A DNA stretch of 64,000 nt from Candidatus Anstonellales archaeon (GCA_038896535.1 JAWACY010000001.1:198397-262396); one strand, 5' to 3'; positions 35,482 to 48,120 are shown, counted from the stretch's first letter. The notes: generated from the sequence alone by a model not told the origin. Numbers and translations are program-made.

Positions 35482-38400
35482 ATGGTTGGTCATATGGGGA
35501 ATAAAAATTTTATGTATGGCATAAAACATGGCATAAAGCATTGCCCAAATATTTTTTTAATTGCGCTTTTGATTATAATATTAACAAATATTTCGTTTTC
35601 ACTTAACTTCATATCAACAATAGAAAAAAAAGGCAATGAAATAGAGATAACATTTTATCCATATAAAATTCAAGAACTTCCATATCAATCAAACCCAAGG
35701 CAGACAACAATACAGATATTGCCATACAACCAAGCTGATATAGAAAGCTTTACTTATTATGTTGAAATAATAAATGCTTCTGGCTCAGTAATATCTTCTT
35801 TTTCAGATTCACAACTCAAAACTTCTATGAAAAGGGGCACAATAAATTTTAATAATGCAAACATACAGGGAGTTATATTTACAATACCTAGCCCTGCTTT
35901 AAATCAGGAATGTGCAATTGTAAAATTAAGTATAGCCGGCATAATAGAAGAAAACAATGCCAGAAATTCATTTGATGAAAAAAGACAAGAAGTGATATGT
36001 GAAAAATCATACCCCCTGGCTTTTAGACAAGGCCTTTCTGATTTATTAACTGCTATTAATTCAAATGCTGGAGTGTGTTACTCAATATTATTCATTTTTG
36101 TTTTTGCTGCTGCTGCATATTATGCTAGATTTGGAAGTACAATAATATCATTATATGATGTTGTAAGTCCGAAAGTATTCAAACTTAAAGAGCCGATATA
36201 TTCTTTAATGAGTGTTTCTCCAAGAGGAGAAATAGCAAAAAAGCTTGAAGAAGCAGATAGAAAAGTAAGAGCCGCTCTATATAAAGATTATGAAGAAAAG
36301 CTCAAACAAGCAGGGATAAATGAAGGAAAGCAATTAAGTTCTTCTGTATTTGAGAAACATCTATTAACTGATAAAAAGTATAAGGAGATAATTGAAGAGA
36401 TAAAAAAGAACATTGATACAGGAGAAAAAATCATAGAACGGTCTAATTTTTCAAAAGAGGAAAAAAAACTCCTCCGAACATATTTAATATTATTGATGCT
36501 TGAACAGATAAAAAGTCCATTTGCTCCAGCAAGCGGCGTAGCAAGGCCAGAAGCAAAAAGAGTTGCGGCTGTTTTGAGGCCTTTTAAATATGTTGGCAAA
36601 ATTAAAGAGGTTAAGTATATTGGAAAACCATTAAATTGGCTTGCTTTGCCGTTGGTGTTAACATCAAAACAAATAGCATCATCTGCTTATACTATTTCAA
36701 AAGCGCCAAGAGCAGTTATAGAATATTTTGGCTTGGGTGAAGCTGCCAGACAAGCAAGAAAAGCAATTATTGAGAAAGAAATAGAGCCAAAAGGCGAAAA
36801 AGAGAAAAGAATGCGCAATATCATAGAACTATTAGCAGGCCCAGAAAAGAAGCATAACATCATTGACATAGCTGTATTTAACAAAATGCCTTCAGAAATA
36901 GAGGATCATTTAAGAAGAGGGCTTGCTGTTCAAGCTATTGAAATAGCCCTTGATAAAAACAGAGAGTTAAAGACAGCATTTAGAGAAATGCAAGAAGAAC
37001 TTGCTAATTTTAAAAGCAGCAAGGACATAACAAACAAAATAAATTCAATAATTGAAAGATTTGGGTCAGATAAAGATAGGGAAAATTTAAAGCTTATAAT
37101 TGAGATCATTAAGGCAGAAAACAGTTATGGAATGCTTGAACTGTTTAATAAATTTTTAGATAAGAATAATATAGATGATCAGATAAAGGGAAAGATAAAT
37201 GACATAATAAAATTGAAGGACAAAGGGATTACAAATATTGAATTAAACATTTTATTTAGCGATTTTATATCAAGAGATTTGCACGATTTTTCTGTTAGGC
37301 AAAGGCTTATAGGACCATATGGAGATGAATCAAGAGATAAAAATAAAAAAACTAAAGACGCCCTTTTTTATCTATTTTTGAACCACCTATATAATGAGTT
37401 TATATTTTTATTTGATAAGCAGCAGTTATCAAACCTTGATGAAGGAGCATTTATTTTATGCGCAAAAATAGCAGCACGCATGGCTTCATATGAAGCTATA
37501 AAGGCGATATACGGGCATGCAGAGAAAGCAGAAATAATTGCTAATTTCTATTCAGCATTAAAAGGAAAGCTTGAAAAAGGGGATAAAGAGCAAAAAGCAC
37601 TGGCAGCATTAATTGACATTGAAATAATTAAGAGAAGAGCAGAGCAAGCAGAAGAGCATTATAAAAACATAGTTGATTATGCAGATAGGATTAAAGAGAG
37701 ACTTAATATTGATATTAAGGGAAAGCTTTATGATTACATTTTTTCACATGAAAAAGAATTTTCTATTCCAGATGAAATGGCTAGGCCTGCATATATAGGG
37801 TTCAGGCCACAAAAAATAACAAATGAGGATATAGAATTCATTAATAAAGCAAGCATTAATATGCTTCCAGTTTATTTAACTGAAAAATACTACAAATTTA
37901 ACATATCGCTTTTAAATGAAATTACAAATTCATTAAGAGGGGCAATATCAGAAGTCGGCGTTTTTAAAGAAAGGTTTTCATCTAATGTATTGAGTTTAAC
38001 ACTCCAGACATTACTTGAAGAAAGGTCTGACAGGCTTTTGGGCTCTGGCATAGATGAGTTAAGAATGAAAAAAGACCTTTTATTGGGCTACATAATTTAT
38101 ATAAGCGAGAGGTATGACATTAGAGATAATGAAGGCATATATAAAAAACTGGAGGAAATTTCTAAAAACGGAATATCTGAAACAGAACTTGAAATAGCAA
38201 GTAAAAGAGGATTTTTGATAGGAAAAACAAAAGACAATGAAGTAATATTAATACCAACAGCAAGCGTTATGAACAAAGTTTTAATATCAGAGAAAGAAAA
38301 GAACAGTTTTCTTGGTTTTAGTGATAACACTAAAGAGAGGATAATGTCGAAATTAGAAAGGATAAAAGAAAATCCATTACTGTTCCTTGAGAGATTATCA

Positions 38401-40404
38401 ACATTTTATATAACCATAAGCGGAATTGAAGAGTATTATATACTAACAAATGATGGCGGTGTGCCAAAGTTAAATAGTTTAAAGCCTTCAGAAGCTTATA
38501 TAGACAGTGAAACAAAGGAAAGAATAGAGAATGTATTAAAAGCATTAGAGCAAAAATTAGGGCAAAAAATGCAATTAACTGATTTATTCAATGCAGATGT
38601 TAATAAATTTAATGATTATATAAAACAATTACAGAAAAATGGCTTATCAGAACTAGACATTTTCAAGCTTGCTTATTCATATTATAAGCATAAAAAAGAA
38701 ATTAATGAAAGGATATATCTTGGCGATATAGATGTTTTTAGAAATCCACAAGATTATAATTTAATAATAGGAACAAAAGAAGAAATAAAACAAAAGCTCA
38801 TTCAACTAAAACAGCTCTCTCCTTTGTTTGAGGCTCTATCACCCGGAGCAGAAAATATAGAAAGTATAAAAGCAACAAAGTTCAAATTCAAAAATGCAAT
38901 GCAGGAACTTTTTGAAGGTTTCATAAATACTCCTTTATCTATTTATCAAGCCCTACATCCATTTGAGGGCATAGAATATATGCCTTATATTAACGCCATG
39001 AACTTTTACAGAGTTGAAGAAATAAAGGAATTGGCAAAGCGTACTGGAGATATAGATAAGGAAAATTTCAAAGAAGCAATAAAGCTTTATGAAGAGCATT
39101 TTAATTCAATGGGTTTCTTCCTTGACAGGAGTGCAAATAATGTTGTAGCTTCATATTTAGATGATGAGCATACAAAATATGCAATAGCCAAACATTATAG
39201 AGGAAGCATATTTGTTCCAGCAGGATTTTTAACTGGAAAAGAAGGAGTTATAAATATAAATAAATCAATGTATATAGATGCTCCACTTTTGGGGCTTTAT
39301 TCCCCAATATTCTCTATAGCAACAAGATTAGCAGAACCAAAGATAAAATTACTTGCTTTAGTAAATCAAGCGCTTTATAGGCCTAGATATTATAATACAG
39401 GTTATGATATATCTCATGATTATGACGAAAATCTGCGTGAATACTTAGAGAAAAAATATAATATGAGAGAACAGGAAATTAAATTTTTGGGCCATATAAG
39501 AAATGTTTCTGGTAATTATTTTAATTATACAGCAGAAACAACTGCTATAAGGCATGCAGCAGCACTAAGACATGCAATATCACTTGGAGCTGGCTATTCA
39601 GTTCCTCTTGCCACAGCTTTATTTGGGGCTATGTTTGGGCCAGTAGGTTTAATGTTAACTGAAAGCGCAAGGTTAATGACTTCTTCATTTTATGGCACTA
39701 AATATAGCTATCTTGATAAATTTTTAATGAGGTTAAACAAAGATGAATTAAATTCATACATAACATTGAATGACCTTTATTATAGAGCAGCATTGCATCA
39801 AGAACAATTGCAATGGTATAAAAGAGGCATAGCTTCTGCTTATGGGCCGATAGGAGCAGTTTTAGGTTATGGTTACTACTCATATATGACAGGCCAGCTA
39901 AGGCCAGAACCAGCACTCATAAGGAGCTATGCCAGATGGATGCAAAGATATGAGAATAAGCCATTTGATATAAATGCATATCAAATAGCATTAAATCTTG
40001 GCAATTACAGGCTTGCTGATACTGATATGCTTGAAGCAGCTGAAAAAACAGCAGCAATTAAAGAATGGGGGAAGCTTGAATGGAATAAACTTGCTTATAC
40101 ATTTATTTTTCCTTCATTAATAGTGAATTTTGCAATTGAAAACATGGCACATTATGGAAAAGGCCTATATAAAGAAGGAAAAGCAAGAGGCTTAAAAGCT
40201 GCTGGTAAGAAAGTAGCTAAGGACATATCCGCTGTTTCAGCTACAACATTATTATTATATCTAAGTCCAGCAGCTGCTGTTGTTGTCCCCTCATATATAT
40301 TAAAACATTCTTTGGCAAGCATTAGAGCAATATGTCCAAATTGTAAGAGAGAAAGGCAAAAAAATGTCGAATGTCCATATTGTGGTTATGTAGGATTTGT
40401 TTAA
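35482..40404 (+). CDS. Giant hypothetical protein (1640 aa): N-terminal signal anchor, very large mostly alpha-helical body, C-terminal cluster of TM helices and a terminal CxxC..CxxC zinc ribbon
   Basis: Single uninterrupted ORF. N-terminal hydrophobic IFLIALLIIILTNISF. C-terminal hydrophobic segments from ~residue 1300, ending CPNCKRERQKNVECPYCGYVGFV. Confidence 0.6.
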   Translation: MVGHMGNKNFMYGIKHGIKHCPNIFLIALLIIILTNISFSLNFISTIEKKGNEIEITFYPYKIQELPYQSNPRQTTIQILPYNQADIESFTYYVEIINASGSVISSFSDSQLKTSMKRGTINFNNANIQGVIFTIPSPALNQECAIVKLSIAGIIEENNARNSFDEKRQEVICEKSYPLAFRQGLSDLLTAINSNAGVCYSILFIFVFAAAAYYARFGSTIISLYDVVSPKVFKLKEPIYSLMSVSPRGEIAKKLEEADRKVRAALYKDYEEKLKQAGINEGKQLSSSVFEKHLLTDKKYKEIIEEIKKNIDTGEKIIERSNFSKEEKKLLRTYLILLMLEQIKSPFAPASGVARPEAKRVAAVLRPFKYVGKIKEVKYIGKPLNWLALPLVLTSKQIASSAYTISKAPRAVIEYFGLGEAARQARKAIIEKEIEPKGEKEKRMRNIIELLAGPEKKHNIIDIAVFNKMPSEIEDHLRRGLAVQAIEIALDKNRELKTAFREMQEELANFKSSKDITNKINSIIERFGSDKDRENLKLIIEIIKAENSYGMLELFNKFLDKNNIDDQIKGKINDIIKLKDKGITNIELNILFSDFISRDLHDFSVRQRLIGPYGDESRDKNKKTKDALFYLFLNHLYNEFIFLFDKQQLSNLDEGAFILCAKIAARMASYEAIKAIYGHAEKAEIIANFYSALKGKLEKGDKEQKALAALIDIEIIKRRAEQAEEHYKNIVDYADRIKERLNIDIKGKLYDYIFSHEKEFSIPDEMARPAYIGFRPQKITNEDIEFINKASINMLPVYLTEKYYKFNISLLNEITNSLRGAISEVGVFKERFSSNVLSLTLQTLLEERSDRLLGSGIDELRMKKDLLLGYIIYISERYDIRDNEGIYKKLEEISKNGISETELEIASKRGFLIGKTKDNEVILIPTASVMNKVLISEKEKNSFLGFSDNTKERIMSKLERIKENPLLFLERLSTFYITISGIEEYYILTNDGGVPKLNSLKPSEAYIDSETKERIENVLKALEQKLGQKMQLTDLFNADVNKFNDYIKQLQKNGLSELDIFKLAYSYYKHKKEINERIYLGDIDVFRNPQDYNLIIGTKEEIKQKLIQLKQLSPLFEALSPGAENIESIKATKFKFKNAMQELFEGFINTPLSIYQALHPFEGIEYMPYINAMNFYRVEEIKELAKRTGDIDKENFKEAIKLYEEHFNSMGFFLDRSANNVVASYLDDEHTKYAIAKHYRGSIFVPAGFLTGKEGVININKSMYIDAPLLGLYSPIFSIATRLAEPKIKLLALVNQALYRPRYYNTGYDISHDYDENLREYLEKKYNMREQEIKFLGHIRNVSGNYFNYTAETTAIRHAAALRHAISLGAGYSVPLATALFGAMFGPVGLMLTESARLMTSSFYGTKYSYLDKFLMRLNKDELNSYITLNDLYYRAALHQEQLQWYKRGIASAYGPIGAVLGYGYYSYMTGQLRPEPALIRSYARWMQRYENKPFDINAYQIALNLGNYRLADTDMLEAAEKTAAIKEWGKLEWNKLAYTFIFPSLIVNFAIENMAHYGKGLYKEGKARGLKAAGKKVAKDISAVSATTLLLYLSPAAAVVVPSYILKHSLASIRAICPNCKRERQKNVECPYCGYVGFV

Positions 40405-41495: not shown

Positions 41496-43064
41496 TTAAT
41501 GATTTGATTCAAAAAAGGCTTTGTTATAAGCATCTACGAATGCATTGATGCTTGCTTTTATTATATCTCTATCAACTGCTCTGCCAAAATATACTTTTCC
41601 ATTCTCATGTTCAAGCTTGATAAAAACTTCTCCCTCTGTATCTGTGCCTGAACCTATTGCATCTATTCTGAATTTAACAAGCTTTAAATCAGGTAGTTTT
41701 TTTAATGCCTTTTTTATTGCATCGATTGCTGCGTCTATGGGCCCCGTACCAATCCCGCTTGCTTCGTATATTTTTCCATTAAATAATAATTCCACTCTTG
41801 CTATTGGTTTTATATTATTGCCAGTCGTTACTAAAAATTCTTTTAATTCAAGCCCCCCTTGCTTTGTTTTTCCAGTTATGTTCTCTACAATGCTTAAAAC
41901 ATCTCTCTCTGTTATTGCATTGCCTTTATCAGCATATTCCTTTATCTTTCTCATTACAATTGCAAGTTCATTTTCATCCAGCATTACGCCGTATTTTTCA
42001 ACTATTGCTCTTATTGCATGAGCCCCAGAATGTTTTCCAATTATTATCGTTCTTTTATTGCCAACAAGCTCTGGTGAATATGGCTCATATGTTAATGCAT
42101 TGCCCATAACGCCATGTACATGTATTCCAGATTCATGAGAAAATGCATTTCTACCAACAACCGGAGCATTTGGCGGTATTGATATGCCAATATATTTTTC
42201 AACTATTTCGCTTACCCCCATTAGCATGTTTAGCTTTACTGTTTTTATGCCATAAAATGCATATAGGGATATAGCAACTTGTTCAAGAGAAGCATTTCCC
42301 CCCCTTTCTCCTATTCCATTTACTGTGCAATGCACTTGCATTGCCCCAGCTTCTACCCCTGCAAGAGAATTTGCAACAGCAAGGCCAAAATCATTATGAC
42401 AATGCATGCTTATCGGTTTTTTTATGTGCTTTCTTATATTGCTTATAAGCTCAAATGTTGCTCTTGGAGTCATGACCCCTACTGTATCTGGAACATTTAT
42501 TTTATCTGCTCCGGCATCACAAGCACTTTTATAAACATCTAACAAATAATCCAGCTCAGTTCTTGTTGCATCTTCACAAGAGAATTCACATTTTAATCCA
42601 AGTTCTTTTATGTGCTCAACTGCTTCCATTGCCTTTTTCTTTATCTCTTCTTTGCTCATTTTTAGCTTATACTCTCTGTGTAGCTTGCTAGTGCCTATAA
42701 ATGTATGTATCCATTTAACATTTGTTTTTGCAGCTTTATCTATATCTTGCTTCAATGCTCTTGTTAATGCCATAACATCACATTTAGTTGTTTCTGCAAT
42801 TTCTTTGACTGCATTGAATTCCCCCTCTGAGACAGATGGAAAACCTGCCTCAATGACATTAACCCCAAGTTTTTCGAGCCAATGTGCGATATCAAGCTTT
42901 TCATCTTTTGTTAATGATGCCCCCGGAGTCTGCTCCCCATCTCTAAGTGTTGTGTCTAATATTAAAACCTTGCCGGGCAAGTTTAAATGTTTTTTTGTAT
43001 CTTTTACATAATCACTTATAGCTATCTTGTTTCCTTCCCCTCTTTTCTTGTTCATAAATACCAC
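41496..43064 (-). CDS. leuA: 2-isopropylmalate synthase / (R)-citramalate synthase family (LeuA/CimA)
   Basis: TTLRDGEQ and HCHNDFGLAVANSLAG metal/substrate motifs, plus a C-terminal LeuA-dimer regulatory domain. 522 aa. Confidence 0.9.
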   Translation of the reverse strand: MVFMNKKRGEGNKIAISDYVKDTKKHLNLPGKVLILDTTLRDGEQTPGASLTKDEKLDIAHWLEKLGVNVIEAGFPSVSEGEFNAVKEIAETTKCDVMALTRALKQDIDKAAKTNVKWIHTFIGTSKLHREYKLKMSKEEIKKKAMEAVEHIKELGLKCEFSCEDATRTELDYLLDVYKSACDAGADKINVPDTVGVMTPRATFELISNIRKHIKKPISMHCHNDFGLAVANSLAGVEAGAMQVHCTVNGIGERGGNASLEQVAISLYAFYGIKTVKLNMLMGVSEIVEKYIGISIPPNAPVVGRNAFSHESGIHVHGVMGNALTYEPYSPELVGNKRTIIIGKHSGAHAIRAIVEKYGVMLDENELAIVMRKIKEYADKGNAITERDVLSIVENITGKTKQGGLELKEFLVTTGNNIKPIARVELLFNGKIYEASGIGTGPIDAAIDAIKKALKKLPDLKLVKFRIDAIGSGTDTEGEVFIKLEHENGKVYFGRAVDRDIIKASINAFVDAYNKAFFESNH

Positions 43065-43065
43065 C

Positions 43066-43707
43066 TCATTTACAATTTATTTTTTCTTTTATGCTTGCTT
43101 CATTCAATAAAGTGTCAAATTTTTTATCATCTATTATTAATGTAGGAGCGCTTGTTATATTATAATATGATACGATAACATTCAAAGGTGATAATCCCTT
43201 TACATCTATTGGAAAAGCAAAAACTGCTGCATTATCGCATTTTTCCCTTATTACATCAAGCACATTTCCCTGCACTTTACATTCCGGGCAATCCTTGAAT
43301 GCAACATAAAAAAATAGTATATTACTTAAATTTTGTTGACAAACCTCTTTATATTCCCTTGTTAATAGATAAAGCTTAAAATTTGTTAAATAATATAGAT
43401 TTCTTAATTCATTCGGGCTTATTAAAATGTTAATATTCTGGTCTTCAAGAGTGTTTCTAATCTTATTTGTTTCCTGCCATAACTCATAAACGGCGCTTTT
43501 TAATGCAACGCAATTTGCCTTATTTTTTGTGCTTTGTATGAAAAGGATTGTTGTTGAACTGCTGTCTATTGCAATATTGAGCTCATTTATTGTATCCCTT
43601 ATTTTATTTGTCCTATCTACCTCTATGTAGTAGCCTATGCCTATCGATATAATAAATAATATGAGCGCAACAGCAGCCCCTTTCCAATAAATGCTTTTAT
43701 CTACCAT
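43066..43707 (-). CDS. Membrane-anchored protein with a CxxC motif (possible thioredoxin-like/DsbA-like thiol-disulfide oxidoreductase)
   Basis: N-terminal TM (ALILFIISIGIGYYI). AFKDCPECK CxxC in the C-terminal half. Start overlaps the upstream GT2 stop, so probably co-transcribed. Confidence 0.35.
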   Translation of the reverse strand: MVDKSIYWKGAAVALILFIISIGIGYYIEVDRTNKIRDTINELNIAIDSSSTTILFIQSTKNKANCVALKSAVYELWQETNKIRNTLEDQNINILISPNELRNLYYLTNFKLYLLTREYKEVCQQNLSNILFFYVAFKDCPECKVQGNVLDVIREKCDNAAVFAFPIDVKGLSPLNVIVSYYNITSAPTLIIDDKKFDTLLNEASIKEKINCK

Positions 43708-45014
43708 TTGTAATCAGCCCTGCCAAGTTCTTGAAAAAAGCTTAAAAAATAAGCAAAGCTTATAAAGAGGCTATAAAGTATTGTTGCTAAGAATATAGTT
43801 ATAAAATCGAAAATTGTTATATTGTTTGCAGTTATTTTTTTACTTAAATATGCAACAAGGAAAAAAGGCAGCATAAAAACAATGGCTATATACAATGCAG
43901 AACTGCTTAAGATTGGCAAGGATTCTATGACAATGCCAATGTTAGATAATATACTGTAAAATAAAAAGAGCAAGCCCCAGAAAAACTGCTTTATTAAAAT
44001 TATGCTTGTTGCCATAATAACAGTTATAGCAGCAAATTCAGCAGTCAAGCTGAAAGGCAGCATAAATGTGCCGAAATCACCATATTTAGGATTAAAAAGC
44101 ATATAATGGTATTTTTTTAAATTCACAAGCTTTCCTCTATACCATCTCAATCTCTGCCTTAACAAACCTTTTACTGTTTCAGGAACTTCTGTATAAACAA
44201 CTGCATCTAAGGCATATTCTATTTTGTAATGGTATTTCCTTAACCTCCAGCCCATCTCTAAATCTTCTGTAATGTTGTTTTCATCAAAAAGGCCTATTTT
44301 ATCAAACACGCTTTTTTTAAACAATGTCATTGGCCCAGGAGTGACAAAAATTATGTTAAAATATTTACCTATTAATGCATAAAGACCAAAACCAATGGCA
44401 TATTCTAAGTCTTGGAATTTTTTTATTAATTTGTCTGGCCTTTCAACCTTTATAAGAACAGCAACTGCACCAACATCTTTATTATTGAATTTTTTTACAG
44501 CATTTATTAATGCATCCTTATCTAAATATGTATCTGAATCAATGCATGCTATGATCTCATTTTTTGCTGCTTTTATGCCAGTATTTAATGCCTTTGCCTT
44601 TCCTTGATTTTTACCCATTTCTATTACTTTTATGCCCATGTTTTTTGCTATCTTTACACTATCATCTGTTGAACCATCATCTACATATATTATTTCTTTT
44701 TTTGTTGGATAATAAGCATTTTTTATTGATTCTATGCATCTCTTTAGTGTTTTACCAGCATTATAGCCAGGCACTATTATTGATATTGGCTCATAGTTTT
44801 TGTTCAATCTTTCTTTTTCATTACTTATGCTGAGATAACCGACAATAAATACACATGTTAAAACAAGCAAAAAGAAGTTTGGCACAAGCATGACCCAGAA
44901 ATAACCAATACTCTCAATAGCAACCCAGAAAATTGATAATAGCAATATAAAGCCAATAAGAGCAATTGTCCTATATTTTACTTTATCCATATTTATTTTA
45001 TCAATATTGTGCAT
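43701..45014 (-). CDS. Family-2 glycosyltransferase, processive membrane-embedded synthase type (PgaC/NodC/chitin- or cellulose-synthase-like)
   Basis: GT-A motifs YVDDGSTDDS, DSDTY (DxD) and the processivity motif QRLRW (QxxRW). N-terminal and C-terminal TM helix bundles flank the catalytic domain. 437 aa. Confidence 0.8.
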   Translation of the reverse strand: MHNIDKINMDKVKYRTIALIGFILLLSIFWVAIESIGYFWVMLVPNFFLLVLTCVFIVGYLSISNEKERLNKNYEPISIIVPGYNAGKTLKRCIESIKNAYYPTKKEIIYVDDGSTDDSVKIAKNMGIKVIEMGKNQGKAKALNTGIKAAKNEIIACIDSDTYLDKDALINAVKKFNNKDVGAVAVLIKVERPDKLIKKFQDLEYAIGFGLYALIGKYFNIIFVTPGPMTLFKKSVFDKIGLFDENNITEDLEMGWRLRKYHYKIEYALDAVVYTEVPETVKGLLRQRLRWYRGKLVNLKKYHYMLFNPKYGDFGTFMLPFSLTAEFAAITVIMATSIILIKQFFWGLLFLFYSILSNIGIVIESLPILSSSALYIAIVFMLPFFLVAYLSKKITANNITIFDFITIFLATILYSLFISFAYFLSFFQELGRADYKW

Positions 45015-45064
45015 GTTTTCTTTTTAACGTAAGATTATTAAAAAGCTTTCTCTAAAATTGTTTA

Positions 45065-47233
45065 ATGGAAACAACATCATTTTCCTATCCCGCTGGATTT
45101 AATGAACCTACAAGCCAGCTATATCAATCATTTGATCCAAATAATAAAGACGATATAGAAAGAGAAAAAAAAGCAGCTAAGGATTATCCACTTATTCCAT
45201 CTTTAATGTTATCATTTTTGCCTGTTGTTGGGCCAGTAATAGATCTTATAAAGGCGTTAGAAGAAGGCAAATATTTGGAAGCATCTATGTATGCTGGTTT
45301 TCTTGTATCAGATTTATTTTTAGTTGGTTATGCTGCTAAATTACCCTTTAAATTTGCTATAAGATATTTGACTATTGATCAGATTGCTGATATATTTAGA
45401 CTTGGTTATAAAGCAATAAAAAAATTGAAGGAAGCAGGCAAAGCAGTTCCAAAAGAACTAGAGAGATTCTATAAATATTTACATGATCTCGGGGATATAA
45501 TTGCTGAAATGAAACAAGAGGGGGCAATGAGCCAAAAATTAAAAGAATACAGACGTGTTCTGGAAGAGATAAGAGGGGCTATTAAAATGCGGATAAAAGA
45601 AATGGGCCTTTATCATTATTTTGAAGCAAGAAGATTAGAAAAAGAAAAATTCTTAGAGAGCTTAAGAACATATATCGAACAAGAAATAAAAATTGGCGGT
45701 AATATATTAAAAGCATTGAAAGGCGACCAGAGAATAAGTGGTTATGCATTATTACTTGATAAAAGTGGTATGTGGAAATTAAATATGCTGTTGGGTAAGG
45801 CAGGGGGCGATATTGCTTTAGGTTTATATAATAGAGCTATTAAGGAAACAATAAAAGAGTTTGGGGAACTAATAAAAAAGGCAGAGATAAGTGAGGAAGA
45901 TATTTTGATAATTTATAAACCAGCAGGCGGAGATGAGTTTTATTTACATTTTTTATCAACAGATCCTTCAAAAGCAGAAAAAGCAGCAGCACTATTTGTT
46001 GAATTAGTAAAGGAAAAAATCCAAAAGGGAATAATAGAATTAGAAGCTTTGTTGCCACCTGGTTTAGCACATCAGTTAAAACAAAGTATTAATGAAATGC
46101 TAAATGGCTTAGCCTGGCATGGAAAGAGAGTTAATATTGAACCAAAGGGCAATGTAATAAAATTTTTTTCACCACATGGAGAGATAAGTGGCATACCAGA
46201 ATACCTTGGTGAAGTTGAATTTGAAAAATTGAGATCTAACCTGCCTGAAAAGATTGCTGACTTTTTTGATGGTTTTAGAAGGGCATTAAAAAGCGTAAAA
46301 GAAACAGTTCCATTGAATGTAGTTGATGTAGAAAAAGCGGTAAAAGCTTTGAAAGAAGGGAGTGCAAAGCTCATCAGGTTTGAGTTAATAATACCAAGTA
46401 AATTTTCACGACATTTTGATGCCTTAACAAGAGCAGCAGAGAAGGGCTATAGCGTTACATTTAATAGGGCTGGTCCAAGTGTTTTTAATTTACTTGGCCA
46501 TGATGTTACTGATACGATAAGGGATTTATATATTAAATCATTAAAGGAAGCTGCCAAGGAAATTGGTGTAGATATAGAAATTAGTGCAATAGATGGAAAA
46601 GGCCCATTTACCCTACTTGTTAAACTGTCTGATGAAAAAAAATTAAATGAATTAATGGAAAGAGCCAGAAGAATATTTGAAAGCTATGAAAATATTTCTC
46701 GTTATAGATTTAGGTTATCACAAGAAGCAGTCAGTAGGTTTGAAGATTTAAGCAGTCCAATAAAAAAGGTATATGAAGAAATAAACAAAGTCTCATCAGA
46801 AAATCCTACAATAAAGAGGCGAATAAATGAATGGACAACAAGATTGGGAGTACGTGAAAATGAAGCCTTAGAAAGGATGTTTAATACTTCATTAATTCTT
46901 ATTAAAACCCATTATGATAAATTTAGTAATTTAATAGGCCGTATGAATATTCCATATGAATTGAAAAAAGCAATAAAAGAGTTTGCAGAAGATAAAAGGG
47001 CAAGAAGCCTTGAAGATTTTTCTAGTATTCTAGAAAAGTACAAGCAAACAGGCGAATTTATTAGGTTGTTATTCACAAGAGAAGTTTCATTGCTACTTTT
47101 GGAGTTTTTATATAACCCAGAAAGATTTAGTGAAAAAGAAAAACAACCAAAACAACCAAAAACATTGGGTAGGGGTGATTTTGGGCAGCCAACTACTGAA
47201 TATATGCCACCCCCAGAAAGGTTGAAAAAATAA
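45065..47233 (+). CDS. GGDEF (diguanylate-cyclase-like nucleotidyl cyclase) domain protein with a long C-terminal uncharacterised region
   Basis: Residues ~225-300 are collinear with the GGDEF consensus: ALLLDKSGMWKLNMLLGKAGGDIAL (cf. LLLDIDHFKxINDxyGHxxGDxVL) and IIYKPAGGDEFYLHF (cf. RYGGEEFavll). The I-site RxxD is degenerate (SEED). Confidence 0.6.
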   Translation: METTSFSYPAGFNEPTSQLYQSFDPNNKDDIEREKKAAKDYPLIPSLMLSFLPVVGPVIDLIKALEEGKYLEASMYAGFLVSDLFLVGYAAKLPFKFAIRYLTIDQIADIFRLGYKAIKKLKEAGKAVPKELERFYKYLHDLGDIIAEMKQEGAMSQKLKEYRRVLEEIRGAIKMRIKEMGLYHYFEARRLEKEKFLESLRTYIEQEIKIGGNILKALKGDQRISGYALLLDKSGMWKLNMLLGKAGGDIALGLYNRAIKETIKEFGELIKKAEISEEDILIIYKPAGGDEFYLHFLSTDPSKAEKAAALFVELVKEKIQKGIIELEALLPPGLAHQLKQSINEMLNGLAWHGKRVNIEPKGNVIKFFSPHGEISGIPEYLGEVEFEKLRSNLPEKIADFFDGFRRALKSVKETVPLNVVDVEKAVKALKEGSAKLIRFELIIPSKFSRHFDALTRAAEKGYSVTFNRAGPSVFNLLGHDVTDTIRDLYIKSLKEAAKEIGVDIEISAIDGKGPFTLLVKLSDEKKLNELMERARRIFESYENISRYRFRLSQEAVSRFEDLSSPIKKVYEEINKVSSENPTIKRRINEWTTRLGVRENEALERMFNTSLILIKTHYDKFSNLIGRMNIPYELKKAIKEFAEDKRARSLEDFSSILEKYKQTGEFIRLLFTREVSLLLLEFLYNPERFSEKEKQPKQPKTLGRGDFGQPTTEYMPPPERLKK

Positions 47234-47244
47234 TATAAAATTTG

Positions 47245-48120
47245 TTAATTAACTTCACACATAATGAAATTACCAAATCTTACTATTTTAACATTTCCAC
47301 CAAGTTCTTTAATTCTTTTATAATCATTTTGCCTTCTTTTTTTATCTAGGATATGTGCTATCTCAAATGCTTTTTTCAACTCCTCATTGTTTAGGCAGGG
47401 ATTAAATTTCTGTTCTTCAAGCCCATCCAGCCCATCTAAATTTTTTGTTAATCTAGAGATGAACAACTCAAATAATTTTGTTGCATATCCAGTTATGTAA
47501 TATTTTGATATCCAATTAGCTATTATCCTTGCAGTTTCTCTTTCATTTTTATCCTTTATACTTTCAACCATATCATTTATTTCATCTGGATGTTTACCGT
47601 TTAAATCTTGGCTCTCATAAATTCTGTAAGCAACAAATAGAATATTATAATAGCCAGCACTCTTTATTTTTTCTTTAAATTCTAATAACCATTCAAATTC
47701 TTTAACCAAAGAGTTAATTTTTCCAATCACTTGTTTTTTACTTTCTTCTTTGCCTGATTTTTCTAATTTGTATAGTAATTCTTTTACTTTTATCTCAAGA
47801 GCAGCTATAATACTTAAATCTTTATCATCTACTAATTTTGATACGTTGTTTAGTAAATTTTCTTTTAAATGTCCATAATTATCTAAGTCCAATTTTTCAA
47901 ATATCTTTTCAAGTGCCATTCTTATATTGGCAGAGAATAACTTTATTTTTCCCTCCTTCTCATGTCCTTCGTAATCCCAGTAAAAGAACAAATAATGGAG
48001 TTTATTCTCTATAAATTCTAAATCTCTATTTAAAAAATCACTAATAAAAGGCGGCAGTTCTAAGCCCAGCAATTTATCTGGATAATCTGGTGGGTTAATG
48101 TTTCTTATGTTGGCTTCCAT
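47245..48120 (-). CDS. Hypothetical alpha-helical protein, 291 aa, convergent with the GGDEF gene
   Basis: ORF with no recognisable motif. 11-nt gap to the GGDEF gene stop on the opposite strand. Confidence 0.45.
   Translation of the reverse strand: MEANIRNINPPDYPDKLLGLELPPFISDFLNRDLEFIENKLHYLFFYWDYEGHEKEGKIKLFSANIRMALEKIFEKLDLDNYGHLKENLLNNVSKLVDDKDLSIIAALEIKVKELLYKLEKSGKEESKKQVIGKINSLVKEFEWLLEFKEKIKSAGYYNILFVAYRIYESQDLNGKHPDEINDMVESIKDKNERETARIIANWISKYYITGYATKLFELFISRLTKNLDGLDGLEEQKFNPCLNNEELKKAFEIAHILDKKRRQNDYKRIKELGGNVKIVRFGNFIMCEVN

Follow-up and report, generated by a model that had tools for sequence, protein, structure and literature searches.

Does an archaeon carry an exopolysaccharide synthase that is gated by a dinucleotide second messenger made by the product of the neighbouring gene? 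Signalling through c-di-GMP is considered essentially a bacterial trait. Archaea are reported to have almost no GGDEF proteins, and no c-di-GMP could be detected in Haloferax or Sulfolobus (PMC8646023). The question was raised by a sequence-only reading of a window of 64,000 nucleotides, by which we mean the whole stretch of DNA analysed (GCA_038896535.1 JAWACY010000001.1:198397-262396, positions counted from its first letter), in which a GGDEF gene and a divergent family-2 glycosyltransferase (GT2) were proposed to form such a module. The DNA comes from a MAG assigned to the Micrarchaeota (Ca. Anstonellales), a DPANN archaeon, and the organism was taken to be archaeal because of its NCBI name, Candidatus Anstonellales, and because the window encodes a CDP-archaeol synthase and an archaeal MCM.

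The four open reading frames of the locus, its 50-bp divergent spacer and the motifs of the GT2 were all found as that reading had described them. The components are real, and the diverged GGDEF-like family to which one of them belongs is new; the proposed regulatory module is unsupported. The best explanation, and in our judgement the probable one, is that two independent units have come to lie side by side fortuitously in a single, compact DPANN genome.

A PgaC-like synthase and its CPxC partner

The GT2 gene (43701..45014, minus strand) encodes a protein of 437 aa that matched Pfam PF00535 (E 2.5e-35) and also PF13641 and PF13632. It carries the motifs DDGSTD112, DSD159, TED249 and QRLRW287, and its hydropathy profile shows two N-terminal and three to four C-terminal hydrophobic, TM-like segments. 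E. coli PgaC (441 aa) shares the D/DxD/TED/QRLRW motifs and has a comparable layout of 2 + 3-4 TM segments, and the two proteins are 36% identical over the 229 aa of the catalytic core (E 2e-43). The best NCBIfam model was PgaC_IcaA (TIGR03937); unlike PgaC, the window protein scored 188 bits, below the equivalog cut-off of 422.3. Sequence relatives in the PDB included BcsA and hyaluronan synthase, and 1254 homologs were detected at E<1e-10, mostly in DPANN. The sequence-only reading had described the GT2 as membrane-embedded, with DxD and QRLRW motifs and no obvious C-terminal PilZ domain; motifs, hydropathy and the Pfam scan agree with this, and on these predicted features its assignment as a processive synthase of the PgaC/BcsA type, embedded in the membrane and lacking PilZ, holds. 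That reading had also allowed for an Agl-type N-glycosylation enzyme, a candidate that we rejected: the AglJ and AglG models, whose cut-offs are 325-440 bits, scored only 34-40, and QxxRW is present together with a multi-TM C-terminus. By family resemblance, the PgaC/IcaA-like GT2 would polymerise a UDP-sugar, most likely a HexNAc, and might thread the growing chain through its own C-terminal transmembrane pore.

Adjacent to the synthase gene, with a start that overlaps the GT2 stop by 7 nt, lies a gene for a 213-aa protein (43066..43707, minus strand). The CxxC membrane protein reported beside the GT2 was confirmed, with one TM segment (aa 10-28) and the sequence C140-P-E-C143. A homolog of this CPxC protein adjoins the GT2 in 7/7 DPANN genomes, down to 33% GT2 identity, and across all seven the two reading frames overlap or abut; gene order is swapped in one of them (L031). 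Invariant in the alignment of CPxC proteins (A1) are C66, C123, C140-P-x-C143, C157 and C212. Matches to Pfam thioredoxin models were sub-threshold, as with Thioredoxin_3 (E 0.006; 17 bits, where the cut-off is 24.8), and the invariant CPxC suggests a thioredoxin-like domain, with the Pfam score below threshold. The CPxC protein is the GT2's true conserved, translationally coupled partner.

The GT2 and CPxC genes would accordingly be read as a two-gene cassette (Unit A, 43066-45014, minus strand) conserved across DPANN. Family resemblance suggests that the CPxC protein is most plausibly an obligatory accessory or a redox-sensitive subunit of the GT2. It would fill the position held in bacteria by PgaD/IcaD, to which it has no homology: PgaD is a two-TM protein, whereas the partner seen here is single-pass and putatively thioredoxin-like. 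In further contrast to E. coli pgaABCD, no gene for a PgaB-like deacetylase (PgaB/IcaB) or a PgaA-like porin is adjacent to the GT2. A literature search found no description of the GT2-CPxC pair. A PgaC-like synthase with a CPxC partner, conserved across DPANN, is a candidate for producing a surface polysaccharide that these host-dependent cells may use in attachment.

The divergent gene encodes a very remote GGDEF homolog

The gene divergent from the synthase (45065..47233, plus strand) encodes a protein of 722 aa in which helical N- and C-terminal regions enclose two palm modules in tandem. It had been called a GGDEF-domain gene, and a literal GGDEF pentapeptide does occur at aa 288-292, where the chance expectation in a 722-aa protein is ~5e-4. 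Pfam and NCBIfam GGDEF models (PF00990 etc.) gave no match to the whole protein at E<=1, a Pfam scan of four of its sub-regions at E<=10 returned nothing relevant, and the GGDEF models did not match any of eight family members at E<=1-10. Searches of PDB sequences with phmmer and hmmsearch, using the whole protein, the motif region, and full-family and module-1 profiles, likewise recovered no significant GGDEF chain.

The relationship appeared in hhalign comparisons with six E. coli GGDEF domains, which gave probabilities of 95% and 93% (P 3.5e-8 and 3.8e-7). Shuffled controls scored far lower (maxima 16-22), a class III cyclase control was null, and the signal was robust to dropping the family members with a literal GGDEF. 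The alignment covers only the N-terminal ~70-80 of 177 columns (beta1-alpha1-alpha2-beta2-beta3-alpha3), and hhalign detected no counterpart in module 1 of the C-terminal GGDEF half with its Lys/Arg ('AK..GRN'). At the level of fold, module 1 is a palm (beta-alpha-alpha-beta-beta-alpha-beta) with GGDEF domains as its nearest structural neighbours; the AF2 model of the protein core had a pLDDT of 84.7 and a pTM of 0.79, and a single-sequence model of the full protein (pLDDT 45) was unusable. Module 1 (aa ~215-330; 45707..46054, plus strand) is a real, very remote GGDEF homolog, visible only at the profile-profile and fold level. The earlier label is therefore right as to a GGDEF-type palm, on the grounds of hhalign, fold and residues, and wrong if taken to mean a match to a curated model; the concern that the domain might be unrelated to GGDEF is countered by the hhalign homology.

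In the hhalign register, D232 falls on the D of 'DxD' in GGDEF domains, N240 on the N of 'IND' and D249 on the D of 'GD'. The first two are present in 18/18 family members and the third in 17/18, with one member (L017) having GN in place of GD; the hairpin Asp-Glu is found in 18/18, as xGDE[FILMVG]. By its sequence, module 1 keeps the metal Asp (D232), the guanine-contact positions (N240 and G248-D249) and the hairpin (G288-G-D290-E291-F292), and in these respects, as in its palm fold, it resembles the diguanylate cyclases DgcZ, WspR and V. cholerae 6eib. It departs from such enzymes in being invisible to PF00990 or any HMMER profile, in its unalignable C-terminal half, and in being fused in tandem to a degenerate copy of itself and not to sensor domains. 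The position of the phosphate-binding Lys is occupied by an invariant Trp (W237), an invariant Lys (K233) directly follows the metal Asp, and a 15-residue insertion precedes the hairpin in the window's protein. No I-site RxxD lies near the hairpin, the only RxxD sequences in the protein being at aa 449 and 558.

The second module (aa ~435-545; 46367..46699, plus strand) is a degenerate copy, in which GPS472xxN475LLGH479xxxD483 is followed by G513-P514-F in place of GGDEF, and acidic catalytic residues are absent. Conservation within the family is strongest in this block: S472, N475, G478, H479, D483, G513 and P514 do not vary across 8-10 sequences. Modules 1 and 2 were related to each other by hhalign (P 3e-4 to 5e-4), and the AF2 model of module 2 repeats the b-a-a-b-b-a topology. 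Its own similarity to GGDEF was marginal (scores of 23.2 and 18.8, where shuffles reached 16-18 at most), and we therefore infer, and do not state as observed, that module 2 is a palm.

A small palm family in Micrarchaeota

A word-index search of 5.8 billion proteins with the 722-aa protein found only the self-match, and searching a database with a profile of the family likewise recovered nothing beyond the query. Exhaustive phmmer gave 10 matches that share a common core at aa ~215-540, and all named family members are Micrarchaeota or DPANN hypothetical proteins. Related loci were searched with a six-sequence subset of the alignment, the eight-sequence alignment being too divergent. The 18 sequences of the family share ~20-30% identity overall. 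The family is small, fast-evolving, restricted to Micrarchaeota and unannotated, and a literature search found no description of it.

The window's protein has no signal peptide, no Cys and one weak hydrophobic segment (aa 41-59); across the family, TM segments are weak or absent and Cys is almost missing. These sequence properties make a cytoplasmic location likely. Palm modules also occur inside giant proteins of 1,000-2,500 aa that have no other recognisable domains. Several members have recurrent neighbours of their own: a downstream gene of ~180 aa in L004, L005, L013 and L016, and weakly in L023, and an upstream gene of ~90 aa beside the giant forms L006, L018 and L019. A tblastn search of the window with the ~180-aa partner found no match. 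Two other readings were considered and rejected, an origin from a viral polymerase and a role in defence: Foldseek against the PDB and the viral BFVD gave no match at E<0.001, and PADLOC models of defence systems did not match.

Possible activities of the palm protein

Two known systems are tandem palm/cyclase pseudo-heterodimers: Cas10, which has two Palm domains, one of them degenerate, and C1-C2 of mammalian adenylyl cyclase. The palm protein (Unit B, 45065-47233, plus strand) would most likely be a GTP-binding nucleotidyltransferase or cyclase, cytoplasmic or membrane-peripheral, and modules 1 and 2 may form an intramolecular pseudo-dimer, with one catalytic site and one regulatory or acceptor site, arranged as in Cas10 or C1-C2. 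The likeness is an analogy of architecture only, as the family has no sequence-level relation to either system (the class III cyclase control was null), and the palm protein lacks an HD domain, is not set among CRISPR or defence genes, and differs in module order and linkers.

Degenerate GGDEF domains act as nucleotide sensors or receptors, for example in LapD, FimX and PelD. By comparison with these, the 722-aa family might be non-enzymatic, its palm modules serving for nucleotide binding or as structural elements in large DPANN scaffold proteins. We regard this as a possibility, and a tentative one. It is consistent with the strongest conservation falling in the non-catalytic module 2, with the presence of the modules in giant proteins of otherwise unrecognisable domain content, with the undetectable C-terminal GGDEF half and its Lys/Arg, with the Trp in place of the phosphate-binding Lys, and with the GN of L017. 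Against it, the metal- and base-binding Asp, Asn and Asp and the hairpin Asp-Glu are kept in 17-18 of the 18 members at ~20-30% identity. Conservation of this kind is typical of active sites, and degenerate receptor domains usually lose the pattern. The palm protein further differs from LapD, FimX and PelD in lacking an EAL or other output domain, and module 2, taken alone, resembles GGDEF at a marginal level of significance.

The reading in which the family is an active GGDEF-derived second-messenger synthase, converting GTP to c-di-GMP, pppGpG or another (cyclic) oligonucleotide through the pseudo-dimer, we consider rather unlikely. If it were true, the family would be a lineage-specific DPANN signalling enzyme missed by current domain censuses; more generally, a GGDEF-derived family that is unseen by curated models but keeps the metal- and guanine-binding residues would mean that such censuses undercount DPANN nucleotide-signalling enzymes. 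The 722-aa protein offers a concrete protein for testing. It is very unlikely that the pentapeptide and the likeness of motifs are coincidental and that the domain merely has a generic fold, ferredoxin-like or palm, with no relation to GGDEF.

Synthase and palm gene are adjacent in this genome alone

The preferred reading, two independent units, was weighed against the proposal that the GGDEF-like protein makes c-di-GMP or a related dinucleotide that gates the PgaC-like synthase, perhaps with the CPxC partner as intermediary or through direct binding of the kind seen in PgaCD. The layout does mirror that of E. coli, where pgaABCD is divergent from dgcT: here too a small membrane-protein gene follows the synthase gene, where pgaD would be, and a gene of GGDEF type points away from the pair. 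The GT2 is PgaC-like, and the residues that bind metal and guanine in GGDEF domains are kept in module 1.

Gene neighbourhoods speak against the proposal. We compared six other DPANN genomes with an orthologous GT2 (63-33% identity), and a palm-family gene was near the GT2 in 0/6. Upstream of the GT2, each genome has a different gene (for ABCE1, SMC, a giant unknown protein or another product), and the giant protein found at this position in L001 has no similarity to the 722-aa protein. Conversely, of ~17 other distinct palm-family loci, the 11 whose upstream DNA exceeds 1.2 kb were informative, and 0/11 carried a GT2 or CPxC gene; searching for any GT2-like ORF with phmmer at E<=1 also found none. 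The comparison draws on incomplete MAGs, many with short contigs, and the nearest GT2 relative with context is 63% identical and from another genus. The adjacency is thus unique to this genome in both directions, and the conserved GT2-GGDEF synteny on which the sequence-only reading had staked its proposal is absent, in contrast to pgaABCD/dgcT. The palm family instead travels with its own small partner genes and not with this type of GT2. Because the nearest GT2 relative is only 63% identical, a lineage-specific functional coupling of the GT2 and the palm gene may exist.

Known c-di-GMP-gated modules (BcsA-PilZ, PgaCD, Alg44, PelD) have a receptor element and a conserved linkage of cyclase and synthase, and the locus differs from them in both. 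Neither PilZ nor GGDEF was matched on the GT2 or the CPxC protein by Pfam or NCBIfam models, and a sequence scan for RxxD, suggested earlier as a possible I-site-like motif, found none in either protein. The CPxC partner is unrelated to PgaD, and c-di-GMP is undemonstrated in any archaeon (PMC8646023).

The shared divergent region (45015..45064, A+T-rich) has the reported length of 50 bp, but not the significance attached to it, since gaps of ~50 bp are the norm here. Neighbouring intergenic gaps within the window measure 1, 11, 24, 30, 41, 48, 56 and 63 bp, and the CPxC gene is 1 nt away from an unrelated LeuA-like gene; the flanking genes encode a LeuA-like synthase, a CMP kinase and an ACT protein. 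As genes are so tightly packed in this genome, the 50-bp gap is uninformative. A scan for bacterial-type promoters, inapplicable to archaea, gave 27 sites against 27.2 expected in shuffles, and a bacterial terminator scan, equally inapplicable, did no better than shuffles.

With neither conserved linkage nor a receptor element, a second-messenger-controlled exopolysaccharide module is highly improbable, and there is no support for the palm protein being the regulator dedicated to the synthase beside it. The compound case, in which an active palm synthase also controls the adjacent PgaC-like enzyme in this genome, is scarcely credible. Adjacency in such compact genomes is weak functional evidence, and on present evidence the proposal of a 'DGC plus synthase' module in archaea should not be passed on.

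On the far side of the palm gene, the reported 291-aa hypothetical gene was confirmed as a convergent open reading frame (47245..48120, minus strand). Its product matched nothing in Pfam, NCBIfam or PADLOC; the gene has no demonstrated link to the GT2 unit or the palm unit and no assignable function. Its sole similarity, a weak one (E 0.003, 27% over 109 aa), is to a 254-aa gene directly downstream of the palm-family member P0123 in L007.

A PgaC-like synthase and its CPxC membrane partner

The four open reading frames lie where the sequence-only reading placed them: the gene for a 213-aa CxxC protein (43066..43707, -), the gene for a 437-aa family-2 glycosyltransferase, GT2 (43701..45014, -), the "GGDEF" gene encoding a 722-aa protein (45065..47233, +) and a 291-aa gene convergent on it (47245..48120, -). 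Both the 722-aa protein and GT2 are recorded from a "Candidatus Anstonellales archaeon" MAG (DPANN class Micrarchaeia), and the archaeal origin of the window was borne out by genes for CDP-archaeol synthase and an archaeal MCM, alongside which a thiolase and a LeuA-like synthase are encoded. The G+C content of ~31-34% along the whole window gave no sign that the region is foreign.

GT2 was shown to be a PgaC-like processive family-2 glycosyltransferase. It was strongly matched by Pfam GT2 models (PF00535, E 2.5e-35), and its top named NCBIfam family was PgaC_IcaA (188 bits, under the equivalog cut-off of 422). Identity to E. coli PgaC reached 36% across a 229-aa catalytic core (E 2e-43), with overall lengths of 437 and 441 aa, respectively. 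The protein carries the motifs DDGSTD112, DSD159, TED249 and QRLRW287, has two hydrophobic segments at its N-terminus and three to four at its C-terminus, and counts BcsA and hyaluronan synthase among its sequence relatives in the PDB. We infer that it builds and exports a beta-linked polymer, probably of HexNAc. An Agl-type N-glycosylation identity was rejected, as Agl models scored 34-40 bits against cut-offs of 325-440. The GT2 family is large in DPANN archaea, with 1254 matches at E<1e-10 (Micrarchaeota, Diapherotrites, Nanoarchaeota).

Orthologous GT2 loci were examined in six further genomes (63, 54, 44, 43, 39 and 33% identity). In all six, GT2 directly adjoined a gene for a ~216-219-aa protein homologous to the CxxC protein, and this gene mostly overlapped the GT2 stop, as in the window, where the two reading frames share 7 nt at the GT2 stop and the CxxC start. 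What is conserved is therefore the pair of GT2 and the CPxC membrane protein, the latter shown here to be a conserved, translationally coupled partner. Its CPxC motif and four other cysteines were invariant in the four closest sequences, and Pfam thioredoxin matches were sub-threshold only; the protein is probably an accessory or redox-sensitive subunit of GT2. The gene order is reversed in the most distant genome (L031, 33% identity), where the CPxC gene (L031:3337-3987) lies upstream rather than downstream of GT2 (L031:4001-5350). The L031 protein retains CPEC and is missing two of the six conserved cysteines.

The 722-aa protein belongs to a remote GGDEF-like family

The 722-aa protein is a near-orphan: a word-indexed search of 5.8 billion proteins returned only itself, and exhaustive phmmer against 1.84 billion representatives gave ten proteins at E<=1e-3, sharing a core at residues ~215-540. 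Named matches were hypothetical proteins from Micrarchaeota and related DPANN MAGs. Locus retrieval added 16 further contigs, each genome-derived one from a Micrarchaeota MAG. The family, which we term the palm family after its two tandem palm modules, occurs in a short form of ~590-840 aa and as giant Micrarchaeota proteins of 1,010-2,509 aa (L006:6001-12015, L017:7481-11545, L018:2871-6884, L019:7292-12262, L022:1506-6284, L024:1239-4271 and L025:1-7530), in which the core lies mid-protein with no other recognisable domain. Members have no signal peptide, weak or absent hydrophobic segments and almost no cysteine, which would fit a protein using NTPs in the cytoplasm.

We then asked how far this family can be called GGDEF. 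Neither the 722-aa protein, whole or divided into sub-regions, nor any of eight family members gave a Pfam or NCBIfam GGDEF match, and HMMER with single sequences or family profiles found no significant GGDEF chain among PDB sequences. In contrast, hhalign of module 1 (7 sequences) against the GGDEF domains of six E. coli K-12 proteins annotated as diguanylate cyclases (dgcF, dgcZ, dgcJ, dgcP, dgcM, dgcC) gave 95% probability (P 3.5e-8, score 52.0, 70 columns), compared with a maximum of 16.3 for 100 column shuffles and 17.3 for the reversed module. With 18 sequences the result was similar (93%, P 3.8e-7, score 46.3; shuffle maximum 21.7), each of the six GGDEF domains aligned in the same register (scores 21.5-45.1), and removal of the two members with a literal GGDEF, the window protein and P0122, still left 85% (P 6.8e-6). 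A class III cyclase from contig L005 gave a null score of 13.2. The sequence-only reading of a "GGDEF gene" thus holds as remote homology and as a literal motif, but not as a Pfam or NCBIfam match.

The register pairs D232 with the metal-binding Asp of GGDEF domains, N240 and D249 with the guanine-contacting Asn and Asp, and GGD290E291F with the active-site hairpin. Within the conserved block of module 1, DK[SG]xx[WY]xLN was present in 18/18 family sequences and followed eight to nine residues later by GD in 17/18, and the hairpin xGDE[FILMVG] kept its Asp-Glu in all 18. These presumptive GGDEF-type metal and guanine positions were thereby shown, at the level of sequence, to be strongly conserved. 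Unlike canonical GGDEF domains, module 1 has an invariant Trp at the phosphate-Lys position, an invariant Lys right after the metal Asp and no I-site, and the C-terminal half of the domain could not be aligned. The block of module 2 (GPSxxN[LQ]xGHxxxD...GP[FM]) lacks the acidic residues of block 1 at matching positions; its hhalign scores against GGDEF were marginal (23.2 and 18.8; shuffle maximum 16-18), and module 1 aligned to module 2 with P 3e-4 to 5e-4, suggesting a degenerate duplicate of module 1. A confident AF2 model of the core, built from ten aligned sequences only, showed two b-a-a-b-b-a modules (pLDDT 84.7, pTM 0.79), and Foldseek found no match at E<0.001 among PDB or viral models.

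Taken together, the family shows the fold, profile homology and key residues of GGDEF domains, and lacks a curated-model match and their C-terminal features. Judged by profile comparison, module 1 is genuinely homologous to GGDEF, though very remotely so, and the palm family is best treated as a new and distant variant of GGDEF, outside PF00990. The protein would bind GTP and might work as a nucleotidyltransferase or cyclase, pairing one catalytic and one regulatory module as a pseudo-dimer.

GT2 and the palm gene are not a conserved pair

The sequence-only reading had joined these genes in a second-messenger-controlled exopolysaccharide module and named absence of conserved synteny in relatives as evidence against it. 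Synteny was examined both ways. A palm-family gene stood upstream of GT2 in none of the six other genomes (0/6), the upstream genes encoding ABCE1, SMC, uncharacterised giant proteins or further unrelated products. Conversely, at ~17 other distinct palm loci, 11 of them with >1.2 kb of upstream DNA, neither GT2 nor CPxC genes were detected by HMM scan or by phmmer at E<=1. The pairing was thus absent in both directions, which is the outcome that reading had set against itself. In the closest GT2 relative (L001), two giant unknown ORFs (>1,277 aa and 1,041 aa) lie directly upstream of GT2.

The divergent spacer between GT2 and the 722-aa gene is indeed 50 bp, but intergenic gaps around the region are 1, 11, 24, 30, 41, 48, 50, 56 and 63 bp, so that such a spacer is the norm in this tightly packed stretch and no mark of shared control. 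Across window 41496-43707 (-), the CPxC gene ends just 1 nt before an unrelated LeuA/homocitrate-synthase-like gene begins in the same direction, after which come genes for CMP kinase and an ACT-domain protein; operon-like packing in this genome therefore joins unrelated functions.

A receptor was likewise not apparent. The Pfam scan bore out the absence of PilZ from GT2, and the suggested search for I-site-like motifs found no RxxD in either GT2 or the CxxC protein. The gene layout resembles that of E. coli pgaABCD with dgcT, but conserved linkage of the two genes and a receptor element were both lacking. A regulatory link between GT2 and the palm protein is not supported, and the module hypothesis is weak: the components are real and the module is not. 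A coupling confined to this genus may exist, the nearest GT2 relative with context being 63% identical.

Archaea are reported to be almost devoid of GGDEF proteins, c-di-GMP was undetectable in two model archaea, and >300 canonical-type GGDEF matches were obtained by BLAST in Asgard and DPANN MAGs (PMC8646023); diguanylate cyclase genes have also been counted in groundwater ultra-small MAGs, Patescibacteria and DPANN combined (PMC9938205). Our literature search found no account of the tandem-palm family or the GT2-CPxC pair. Both are testable leads, as a cryptic GGDEF-derived, DPANN-restricted family and a PgaC-like/CPxC cassette conserved across DPANN.

Neighbours of the palm family

Short palm forms have a homologous ~180-aa gene directly downstream (L004:9880-10440, L005:2675-3220, L013:4909-5448, L016:3133-3672 and, weakly, L023:4253-5113), often with its start overlapping the palm-gene stop. 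This gene, without a Pfam or PADLOC match, is a candidate functional partner of the short forms. Giant forms in L006, L018 and L019 have a conserved ~90-aa gene upstream (61-75% identity); neither partner gene is present in the window. The sole glycosyltransferase association seen for the family is a GT4-family (PF00534) gene upstream of the palm gene in two closely related MAGs of 86% identity (L016:71-1210, L013:1662-2798); this enzyme belongs to another class, which is not processive, and the association represents one evolutionary event.

The 291-aa gene (window 47245-48120, -) weakly resembles a 254-aa gene (L007:838-1602; E 0.003, 27% over 109 aa) directly downstream of the palm-family member P0123, and could be a diverged, inverted partner or a chance match. 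A giant 1,640-aa ORF (window 35482-40404, +), 3 kb away from the GT2 cassette, has a C-terminal CxxC...CxxC motif and no Pfam match. The palm-bearing Micrarchaeota contig L005 carries, ~6.5 kb from the palm gene, a gene for a class III nucleotide cyclase with a membrane anchor (PF00211; L005:9192-10106, -), so other nucleotide-cyclase genes exist in these archaea. About 2.5 kb upstream of the giant palm gene of L006, a PF01909 nucleotidyltransferase gene is paired with a PF05168 HEPN gene (L006:2498-3483), an arrangement typical of toxin-antitoxin or defence modules.
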